Below, piece by piece: positions 27,001 to 30,000 of a stretch of DNA of 31,647 bases. Where the stretch lies: the IMG/VR virus record IMGVR_UViG_2681813201_000018, positions 1-31,647 of that record; one strand, written 5' to 3'. Made by a program: the position numbers. This DNA is from a virus (lineage: Duplodnaviria; Heunggongvirae; Uroviricota; Caudoviricetes). How positions within the stretch are numbered: the first letter of the stretch is position 1; every line of letters begins with the position of its first letter.

Positions 27001-30000
27001 AAAAATGATCCACCTGAAGTTCACTCGTCGTCTGCATCAGACGCGAGGCTCATCCATGTTATCGGGGGTGCTGATGCGGATCAGTGCCCTTAAGGAGTAT
27101 GAGGATGCGGAACTGACAGCGGCGCGTATTGCTGCGGCGCTGGGACTGTATATCCGTAAAGGTGACGGACAGGACTATGAAGATCCGGGGAGCAAAGAGA
27201 CCGAGCGGGAAGTCCATATCACCCCGGGTATTATTTATGACGATTTGCGCAAGGGCGAGGATATCGGCATGGTCAAATCTGACCGTCCCAATCCCAACCT
27301 TGAAACTTTCCGCAACGGCCAGTTGCGTGCAGTGGCAGCAGGCAGTCGTCTGAGTTTTTCCAGTGCGGCGCGTAACTATAACGGCACCTACAGCGCCCAG
27401 CGGCAGGAGTTGGTCGAGTCCACGGATGGTTACCTGATCCTGCAGGACTGTTTTATTGGCGCGGTAACCCGCCCGGTGTACCGGACATGGCTGAATATGG
27501 TGGTTGCGGCAGGTCTGCTGAAAATTCCGGCGGATGTGGAGATGAAAACGCTATATAACGCGACGTATTCCGGTCCGGTGATGCCGTGGATCGACCCGGT
27601 TAAGGAAGCTGAAGCCTGGAGAATTCAGATCCGGGGTGGTGCAGCGACAGAATCTGACTGGGTGCGTGCTGGTGGGCGCAATCCGGATGAGGTCAAACGT
27701 CGCCGCAAGGCTGAAATTGATGAAAACAGCAGACTGGGGCTGGTCTTTGATACTGACCCCGTCAACGACAAAGGAGGCAACAGTGCCGGAACTGAACGAC
27801 AGTATCAGCGCGACACCGAAAGCCAGCATGAAGAATAAATCCTGGTTCAGGATGCAGGCTGGGGGGCCGGGTGACGCGGATATTTATATTTATGACGAGA
27901 TTGGTTTCTGGGGAGTTACCGCGAAGCAGTTTGTCAGCGAACTGAATGCACTGGGTGATATCACCCACATTAATCTCCATATCAATTCACCGGGTGGCGA
28001 TGTCTTTGAAGGCATCGCCATTTTTAATGCCCTGAAAAATCAGGGGGCGACCATTACCGTGTATGTGGATGGCGTTGCCGCCTCGATGGCATCTGTGATT
28101 GCGATGGCCGGTGATACGGTCATTATGCCGGAAAATGCCTTCATGATGATCCATAAGCCATGGGGATTCAGTGGCGGGGATGCTGAGGATATGCGCAGTT
28201 ATGCCGATTTGCTGGATAAAGTCGAATCGGTACTGTTGCCAGCCTATGCGCAGAAAACCGGAAAAACCACCGATGAAATTGCCGCCATGCTGGCGGATGA
28301 AACCTGGATGTCCGGTGCCGAATGTCTGGCACACGGATTTGCTGACCAGGTGACACCCGCTGTTGAGGCAATGGCATGTATTCAGTCAAAACGTACAGAG
28401 GAATTTAAAAAGATGCCGGAATCCATCCGAAACATGATTACTCCGCCACGCAACAGTGCCCCGCGTGATACCACAGTGACAATCCCTGCACCGGCGGTAA
28501 CAGAACCATCACCGGTACCGGCAGTGTCTGATGAGGCGACCATTCGCGCCCGCGTTATGGCAGAACAGAAAGCCCGCATGTCAGGCATTAACGATCTGTT
28601 TGCCATGTTCGGTGGTCGCTATCAGACGCTTCAGGCACAGTGCGTGGCTGATCCTGACTGTTCGCTGGAAATGGCCCGTGAACGACTGCTGAATGAAATG
28701 GGCAAGGAGTCCTCGCCGACCAACAAAAATACACCGGCCCATATTTATGCCGGAAACGGCAATTTTGTGGGGGACGGGATCCGCCAGGCGATGCTGGCCC
28801 GTGCCGGATTTGAAAATGTCGAGAAGGATAACGCCTATAACGGGATGACCCTGCGTGAATGGGCTCGCATGTCACTGACGGAGCGCGGTATTGGGGTGGC
28901 CAGTTATAACCCCATGCAGATGGTCGGGCTGGCGCTGACGCACAGCACCTCTGATTTTGGCAATATTCTGCTGGATGTGTCGAACAAGGGGCTGATCCAG
29001 GGCTGGGAGGAATCAGAAGAAACCTTCCAGAAGTGGACCCGTAAGGGACGCCTGTCAGACTTCAAAACAGCGTATCGCGTGGGGATGGGCGGTTTTGGTT
29101 CTCTGCGCCAGGTTCGTGAGGGGGCGGAGTATAAATACATCACCACCTCAGATCGCAAGGAGACCATTGCACTGGCCACTTACGGGGAGATTTTCTCCAT
29201 CACCCGCCAGGCCATTATCAATGATGATCTGAATATGCTGGTGGACGTGCCGATGAAGATGGGGCGTGCGGCGAAGGCAACGATTGGTGACCTGGTCTAC
29301 AAGGTGCTGACGGATAACCCGAAACTGTCCGACGGTAAGGCGCTGTTCCATGCCGATCACAAAAATATTGCCACCGGGGGGATCTCCGTTTCCGGACTGG
29401 ATGCGGCCCGTCAGATGATGCGCCTGCAGAAAGAAGGCGATCGTGCCCTGAATATCCGTCCGGCCTTTATGCTGGTACCGGTGGCACTGGAGACGGTGGC
29501 GAACCAGACCATCAAATCGGCCAGTGTGAAAGGGGCGGATGCAAACGCCGGTGTCATTAACCCTATCCAGAACTTTGCTGAGGTGATTGCAGAAGCGCGT
29601 CTTGATGCGGCAGACCCGAAAACCTGGTATCTGGCGGCGGCACAGGGCACTGACACCATTGAAGTGGCCTGGCTGGATGGTGTGGACACGCCATACATTG
29701 ATCAGCAGGAAGGTTTCACCACTGACGGCATTGCCACAAAAATCCGTATTGATGCCGGAGTGGCACCACTTGACTGGCGCGGGCTGGTGCGTTCGTCGGT
29801 GGCCTGATAACCGCGTTATCACAATCACTGCCCGAAAGGGCTTTTTTTATGCCTGAAAAACAGCCCCACAGGGGCTGTCCGGAGAAACAGCATTATGGCG
29901 AAAAATTTTGTACAGGACGGTACCACCATTGAACTGGTGAATGCCGGAGATCAGACCATCCTGAGCGGTGCTGCGGTGGTGGTCGGCAGTATGGTGGCCG

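Follow-up and report, generated by a model that had tools for sequence, protein, structure and literature searches.

The 31,647 nucleotides (nt) of IMG/VR virus record IMGVR_UViG_2681813201_000018 (the whole stretch that was analysed, called the window below) are those of a lambdoid prophage, and the head module of this prophage contains one long gene in which a ClpP-like protease domain and a predicted major capsid domain are joined in a single chain. The gene lies on the + strand between that for a lambda-family portal protein and that for a small head decoration (cement) protein (Table 1). It is very probably the single head-shell gene of a Gifsy-2-type lambdoid Escherichia coli prophage, encoding a 73-kDa, presumably self-processing polyprotein made up of a protease, a linker and scaffold-like part, and an HK97-fold capsid protein.

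The fused gene and its product

The fused gene has a GTG start codon and a TGA stop codon at 29805-29807 and encodes 674 amino acids (aa; 73.1 kDa), exactly the single open reading frame (ORF) at 27783-29807 that had been described in the first-pass annotation; the longest mechanical frame begins at GTG 27636 and runs for 723 aa to the same TGA. It had also been proposed there that the ORF joins a ClpP/S49-like prohead protease to a capsid-like C-terminal half. A domain search across the ORF found both domains at high significance.

In the N-terminal part, residues 46-191 match Pfam CLP_protease (E = 1.7e-36), and NCBIfam NF045542, 'head maturation protease, ClpP-related', scored 224 bits against a cut-off of 120. 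The identity of the catalytic residues in ClpP is well established; the sequences GVAASMAS and MIHKP of the query align with the motifs around the catalytic Ser and His (GxAASMA and MIHxP) in solved ClpP structures, and Glu173 of the fused protein occupies the position of the ClpP catalytic Asp. Conservation was assessed by aligning 80 members of the family, with identities to the query of 33-99%. All 80 have Ser101 and His124, and at position 173 there is a Glu in 67 and an Asp in 9. An invariant Ser and His, and an acidic third residue in 76/80 of such diverse relatives, argue that protease catalysis is under selection.

A protease of the S49 type, as in lambda gpC, was considered and rejected: TIGR00706 gave 27.1 bits against a cut-off of 155.45 and TIGR00705 gave 16.4 against 311.45, a similarity at the level of the clan only. 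Models of true ClpP other than TIGR00493, which is taken up below, reached 24-83 bits against cut-offs of 228-361. As the true-ClpP and the S49/SppA models both score far below their cut-offs, the domain is classed by these profiles as ClpP-like, with the S14 fold, and as neither a cellular ClpP nor a protease of the lambda gpC type. Of the proposed ClpP/S49-like protease, then, the ClpP-type part stands, on Pfam and NF045542, and the lambda-C/S49 part has to be dropped, the SppA models being below cut-off.

The capsid-like nature of the C-terminal half was borne out by both profile and fold. Residues 384-671 match Pfam Phage_capsid_4 (E = 9.8e-56), with a weaker Mu-like gpT match besides. An AlphaFold model of residues 320-674, made with 80 diverse sequences, had a mean predicted local distance difference test (pLDDT) score of 91.6 and a predicted template-modelling (pTM) score of 0.87. 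When this model was compared with the PDB using Foldseek, all 50 listed matches were HK97-fold capsid proteins or encapsulins. They included HK97 Head II (2ft1, 1ohg), Prohead II, Mu (9jod), D3 (9ous), SaPI1 (8vd4) and several mycobacteriophages, with a probability of 1.00, E values down to 5e-11 and target-normalised template-modelling (TM) scores of 0.39-0.65 over the listed matches. A single-sequence search of the PDB with the C-terminal part gave weak matches to 9jod, the capsid of Mu (E = 1.9e-5), and to 8rkc, 'Mu GpT domain' (E = 0.002). In a PDB profile search with a mixed alignment, ClpP chains alone were among the matches listed, because the profile contained protease columns. The C-terminal domain is predicted, from this high-confidence model, to be an HK97-fold major capsid protein. 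The family-matching listed ORFs from the portal gene to the Z-like tail gene are the fused gene, the cement gene and a 93-aa gene of head-tail type. As there is no other capsid candidate in this interval, the shell protein must come from the fused ORF.

No family in the Pfam search matched the middle region of the protein, which falls into three parts: a conserved basic segment, a hypervariable linker and a helical segment (Table 1). The basic segment contains Met211-Pro212. In the diverse set Pro212 is found in 73/80, but Met211 in only 6/80, and most of the others have Ala, Val, Ile or Pro at position 211. The linker is the least conserved block of the protein (conservation 0.22). The helices were predicted with a pLDDT of about 66-84 over residues ~250-309 in an earlier model of residues 250-674 from 21 close homologues (73-99% identity). 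The mean pLDDT of that model was 37.8 and its capsid part was poor, and it was kept out of the fold search. The helical segment may act as a scaffold, judging from where it lies in the chain and from the analogous parts of Gifsy-2 and of HK97 (the delta domain).

The strong ribosome-binding site and the GTG start of the first-pass annotation were upheld. The Shine-Dalgarno (SD) sequence AAAGGAGG has an anti-SD pairing energy of -11.6 kcal/mol with the 3' end of 16S ribosomal RNA, the strongest among all in-frame ATG, GTG and TTG candidates of the gene. Phage mEp460, with DNA that is only ~77% identical, has an identical AAAGGAGG-N5-GTG at the homologous site. The annotated ATG of the Gifsy-2 gene aligns exactly with GTG 27783 (ATG/GTG CCG GAA...). 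Gifsy-2 also has an in-frame stop upstream of its ATG and no Met where the RefSeq start would be, and in 22 relatives the N-terminus given by the gene caller is "MP". Public records give three starts for the identical DNA: ATG 27687 (ASU11, 706 aa), GTG 27783 (674 aa) and ATG 27828 (RefSeq/PGAP, 659 aa). With the strongest SD pairing, a motif and spacing kept in mEp460, and the alignment with Gifsy-2 and its upstream stop, GTG 27783 is better supported as the start than either RefSeq ATG 27828 or ASU11 ATG 27687. Judging from the conserved AAAGGAGG-N5-GTG and the Gifsy-2 alignment, the gene as annotated in RefSeq probably lacks its first 15 codons.

The end of the portal gene and the start of the fused gene overlap by 56 nt in different frames. 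About 12 database proteins of 1158-1159 aa (P0071-P0079, P0082, P0085 and P0086) carry portal, protease and capsid in one chain. In two of these that were inspected, the frame switches at differing points within the overlap, in one case apparently through the loss of a C from a CCCC run. These chains look like the result of independent 1-nt indels or sequencing errors and not of a designed read-through.

The gene is an intact and typical member of a family that is already known and curated, and its architecture is not new. NCBIfam NF045540, named 'ClpP-like prohead protease/major capsid protein fusion protein', scored 1004 bits against a cut-off of 475, with residues 32-672 on profile positions 2-651 of 652; in RefSeq, identical copies bear this same product name. 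PHROG 133 scored 1155 bits in a full-length match. What defines the NF045540 family is found here, namely a ClpP-like N-terminus, the middle region and an HK97-fold capsid in one chain, with the catalytic Ser and His retained. Its head-module context is found as well: a lambda-type portal upstream, a cement protein downstream and no separate capsid or scaffold gene. Searches of the literature, by family name or for virion proteomics on genes of this kind, yielded nothing useful.

Many independently finished E. coli O157:H7 chromosomes carry the 2025-nt gene with 100% identity, and so does the Shiga toxin 2 (Stx2) phage ASU11. As that phage was obtained by mitomycin C induction, this exact gene serves an inducible phage. 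Of 5426 complete E. coli genomes, 2070 have a DNA match and 2016 have one that covers at least 80% of the gene. Among the best 120 matches to proteins clustered at 90%, many are full-length, with 640-690 aa and both domains, and the hosts include Escherichia, Salmonella, Shigella, Citrobacter, Kosakonia and Raoultella. A library clustered at 50% gave 8226 representatives at E ≤ 1e-30, and about 97 of the best 150 of these match from residue 50 or earlier to residue 665 or later in one stretch at 36-60% identity. In a tblastn search of phage records, 1628 matched and only 82 covered at least 80% of the query. The remaining matches are mostly to the protease part only, in phages that have a separate capsid gene. 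As most of the tblastn matches reach only the protease part, the fused arrangement is by this count a minority one among phages, yet it is old and widespread.

A 99.8%-identical copy in VT1-Sakai (AP000400.1, L002:3921-5230), the Stx1 prophage of O157:H7 Sakai, is split by IS629, and its parts are annotated 'scaffolding protein' and 'hypothetical protein'. Because of this split, the VT1-Sakai prophage should be unable to build heads by itself. In another relative, P0100 (939 aa), the last ~14 capsid residues are swapped for ~280 residues that include the C-terminal domain of the lambda tape measure (PF09718), probably because a deletion joined head and tail genes in a decayed prophage.

Table 1 Positions in the window of the fused head gene, its parts and the features around it
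Feature	Position (nt)	Strand	Basis and remarks
Q-like antiterminator	15955-16629		
ORF6N-domain gene	17109-17666		
NanS-p-like esterase	18379-20325		
Lambda-family portal protein gene	26336-27838	+	Pfam Phage_portal_2, E = 1.6e-80; TIGR01539, 444 bits
Shine-Dalgarno sequence AAAGGAGG	27770-27777	+	Read directly; spacer to GTG 27783 of 5 nt; contains AAGGAGG
Fused head gene	27783-29807	+	674 aa
ClpP-like (S14) serine protease domain, residues ~32-195	27876-28367	+	Pfam, NCBIfam, alignment to ClpP structures
Catalytic codon Ser101	28083-28085	+	Alignment with ClpP motifs
Catalytic codon His124	28152-28154	+	Alignment with ClpP motifs
Catalytic codon Glu173	28299-28301	+	Alignment with ClpP motifs
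Conserved basic segment, residues 196-225 (AMACIQSKRTEEFKKMPESIRNMITPPRNS), with Met211-Pro212	28368-28457	+	Invariant or nearly so in 23 close relatives
Hypervariable Pro/Thr/Ala/Val-rich linker, residues ~226-249	28458-28529	+	Variation in length and sequence, with indels even among close relatives
Helical scaffold-like segment, residues 250-319	28530-28739	+	Three helices predicted
Major capsid protein region as modelled, residues 320-674	28740-29804	+	AlphaFold and Foldseek; Pfam part at nt 28932-29795
Hairpin 1, GCCC-GAAA-GGGC (29830-29841) then T7 (29842-29848)	29830-29848	+	Fold; stem of 4 bp
Hairpin 2, ACAGCCCC-ACA-GGGGCTGT	29860-29878	+	Fold; 8-bp stem, just upstream of the ribosome-binding site of the cement gene
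Head decoration (cement) protein, 108 aa, 10.7 kDa	29895-30221	+	Pfam Phage_cement_2, E = 6.6e-19; PHROG 122 'head decoration'
93-aa gene	30214-30495	+	Pfam 'Gifsy-2' PF13856; weak PF05354 match, E = 0.004

Downstream elements and prophage context

The fused gene had been said to be followed by two terminator hairpins. Both hairpins exist, but only the first is terminator-like. Hairpin 1 is annotated as a rho-independent terminator in the mEp460 record and can be regarded as a weak intrinsic-terminator-like element. Hairpin 2 has no T-run after its stem on the + strand and so is not a canonical terminator; a T5 run is found on the - strand, in this window only. Neither hairpin was reported on the + strand by a consensus promoter and terminator scan, in the case of hairpin 1 because its stem is under 5 bp. 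The 101-nt spacer at 29800-29900 folds modestly better than shuffled sequences (z = -2.0). Both hairpin positions are kept in mEp460 and Gifsy-2. As the stem of hairpin 2 differs in Gifsy-2 (CCGGCAC/GTGCCGG) at the same place, it is suggested that its structure and not its sequence is conserved.

The 108-aa cement protein is 54% identical to Gifsy-2 STM1034. For the 93-aa gene that follows, PF13856 is described as 'ATP-binding sugar transporter from pro-phage' and the RefSeq name is 'DNA breaking-rejoining protein'. Its place between the cement and Z-like tail genes, together with its weak match to the lambda head-tail attachment family PF05354, suggests that the product is a head-tail joining protein and that both legacy names look wrong.

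Along the window the order of genes is a host DUF2511 fragment, integrase, RecE-like exonuclease VIII, the repressor region and the Q-like antiterminator, followed by the ORF6N-domain gene, the NanS-p-like esterase, lysis genes, terminase, portal, fused gene, cement and Z/U tail genes. The first 9 kb are 99.9% identical to E. coli O157:H7 strains, and over the late region (17.8-31.6 kb) the identity with a prophage in O157:H7 TW14359 is 99.7%. In the interval 16630-18378, which in related Stx phages (ASU11, for example) holds a methylase, transfer RNA (tRNA) genes and stx2AB, the window has the ORF6N-domain gene. A search for tRNA genes in the window found none, and the window has no ORF of stx2A size where ASU11 has stx2. 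Between the holin and lysozyme genes there is an ORF of 186 aa (21222-21782, + strand) that has no Pfam match and is a RefSeq hypothetical protein in the near-identical TW14359 prophage.

Head assembly and alternative explanations

A route for head assembly can be proposed in which topology, self-cleavage, cleavage position, T=7 geometry and decoration follow from homology to Gifsy-2 and from analogy with HK97 and lambda. Translation would be initiated at GTG 27783 and give one 73-kDa chain. The C-terminal domains would build a procapsid around the lambda-type portal, with the protease and scaffold-like parts facing inward. The tethered protease (Ser101-His124-Glu173) may then cleave the chain within the linker and scaffold-like region, or close to it, and break down the parts inside. 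The cleavage site is expected between about residue 226, in the linker, and residue 384, where the Pfam capsid match starts. This would leave a capsid protein of ~31-39 kDa in a shell that would expand upon DNA packaging and that trimers of the 108-aa cement protein would then stabilise, like gpD in lambda. The presence of the cement protein gene suggests that the capsid is stabilised non-covalently instead of by an HK97-type chainmail of Lys-Asn isopeptide bonds. For Gifsy-2, proteolytic release of the capsid protein and a T=7 shell with trimeric decoration are given in passages of citing papers.

Several observations weigh against a self-processing polyprotein. The Pfam CLP_protease match begins at profile position 29 of 182, so that the first 28 positions are missing, the third residue of the triad is Glu and not the Asp of ClpP, and TIGR00493, the model of true ClpP, scored 61.6 bits against a cut-off of 308.6. 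ClpP usually acts as stacked heptameric rings, and the domain here would be tethered to 5- and 6-fold capsomers. Self-processing, which had been proposed in the first-pass annotation, is expected because the protein is homologous to that of Gifsy-2 and has kept its catalytic residues. The Glu at position 173 and the missing N-terminal part could mean that the ClpP-like domain has lost its catalytic activity and acts solely as a scaffold inside the head, the capsid protein being trimmed by a host protease or a different phage protease, or not at all. This is very improbable: Ser and His in 80/80 and an acidic third residue in 76/80, at 33-99% identity, form a pattern expected only under selection for catalysis, and no other protease family was matched among the head-module ORFs that were scanned. 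There is practically no chance that the fusion is artificial, whether through an error in sequencing, an overlooked stop codon or a pseudogene. The frame errors that occur nearby in some public assemblies, seen in the 1159-aa portal and fusion proteins, were the one point found in its favour, and it is refuted by the identical 2025 nt in many independent finished genomes and in ASU11, by the 2016 E. coli genomes with a match over most of the gene, by conserved full-length relatives that carry both domains in a single frame and chain down to 36% identity, and by the existence of a curated NCBIfam model for the fused architecture. The possibility of a false fusion had been raised with the first description of the ORF and can be set aside.

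A different division of labour would result from a nested start, as in lambda C/Nu3. Translation from ATG 28413 (Met211) would give a protease-less chain of 464 aa (50.5 kDa) that makes up most of the shell, with the protease on only a minority of subunits. The lambda pair is an established precedent, and all 23 close relatives, Gifsy-2 among them, have Met211-Pro212. In the window, mEp460, Gifsy-2 and BR200a the Met211 codon is preceded at 9-10 nt by a GAGGA-like motif, and in the three enterobacterial genes of these four the Met211 start is among the six best in-frame candidates. The purine motif is, however, explained by coding, since it encodes a conserved Glu-Glu-Phe. The pairing at Met211 is modest (-6.0 kcal/mol against -11.6 for GTG 27783), the 10-nt spacing is long, and the scarcity of Met at position 211 in the diverse set (6/80) also speaks against it. 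A nested start is thus unlikely. If it were true for the enterobacterial branch, the 73-kDa and 50.5-kDa chains would set the ratio of protease to shell, as C and Nu3 do in lambda, and it would then be clear how a T=7 procapsid can do without several hundred ClpP-fold domains in its interior.

The single 73-kDa chain is the preferred reading. In many lambdoid prophages of pathogenic E. coli, long-tailed Stx phages among them, this fused gene is the one for the major capsid protein. This is of value for annotation, where records call the gene "Clp protease ClpP", "protease/scaffold protein", "head-tail preconnector protein Nu3" or "major capsid protein". It carries little weight as a discovery, since the architecture was described experimentally for Gifsy-2 in 2010 and both an NCBIfam model and a RefSeq name exist.

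Comparison with Gifsy-2 and other known systems

In the 2010 study of Gifsy-2, Effantin and colleagues (Virology) reportedly found an N-terminal ClpP-like protease and a C-terminal capsid protein in one chain, with a central domain of ~200 residues that is said to have a possible scaffolding role; the capsids were reportedly modelled with the HK97 major capsid protein and lambda gpD. The Gifsy-2 protein STM1034.3n (NC_010393; 696 aa, the product of a 'tripartite capsid gene') is 60% identical to the window protein from end to end, including the N-terminal MPE, and has the same three-part architecture. It is annotated "Clp protease involved in capsid processing" and scores 950 bits on NF045540, the same model as the window protein. 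The two proteins differ in the sequence and length of the linker, in an 8-residue insertion near residue 318 and in a Lys for Asp172 in Gifsy-2. The window gene starts with GTG and that of Gifsy-2 with ATG, with no functional difference evident. In Gifsy-2 the order of genes is portal, fusion, a 107-aa protein and Z/U/V-type tail genes, which matches that of the window with its 108-aa cement protein, and the order portal, fusion, cement and tail genes is found also in mEp460, Pseudomonas phage BR200a and a Ralstonia phage. A passage of PMC12315714 describes the Gifsy-2 prohead protease and coat genes as fused, and the Gifsy-2 capsid is entered as T=7 in Table 1 of PMC8814770.

Proteins of NF045541, 'prohead protease/major capsid protein fusion protein', have homologous middle and capsid parts. 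An example is that of Ralstonia phage YO135_4 (L008:2344-4437), which has the same type of portal upstream and a Phage_cement_2 protein downstream, but over its first ~200 residues it is unlike ClpP and matches no Pfam family. The window protein scored 418 bits on NF045541 over residues 213-671, a region that includes the helical segment and is common to both families; as the cut-off is 525, it is not a member of this sister family. It appears from these matches that one scaffold-capsid module has been joined to different protease domains in NF045540 and NF045541.

The likeness to cellular ClpP is one of fold and motif (GxAASMA, MIHxP). The window domain differs in its Glu for Asp, in being fused to a capsid protein and in lacking about 28 N-terminal profile positions.

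HK97 gp5 is an HK97-fold shell protein, like the C-terminal domain of the window protein. It too has an N-terminal assembly domain fused to the capsid protein, which is removed inside the prohead by the phage protease. That protease, gp4, is encoded by a separate gene and belongs to another family, unlike the fused ClpP-like domain. The HK97 capsid is stabilised by covalent chainmail and not by a cement protein (PMC8538268).

The window resembles lambda in its portal and terminase, which are of the lambda family, in its lambda-like tail genes Z and U, and in encoding a small decoration protein of the kind by which the expanded shell is cemented. The difference lies in the head-shell genes, since lambda has a protease-scaffold fusion C with Nu3 nested in it, a separate capsid gene E and a protease of the S49 type.

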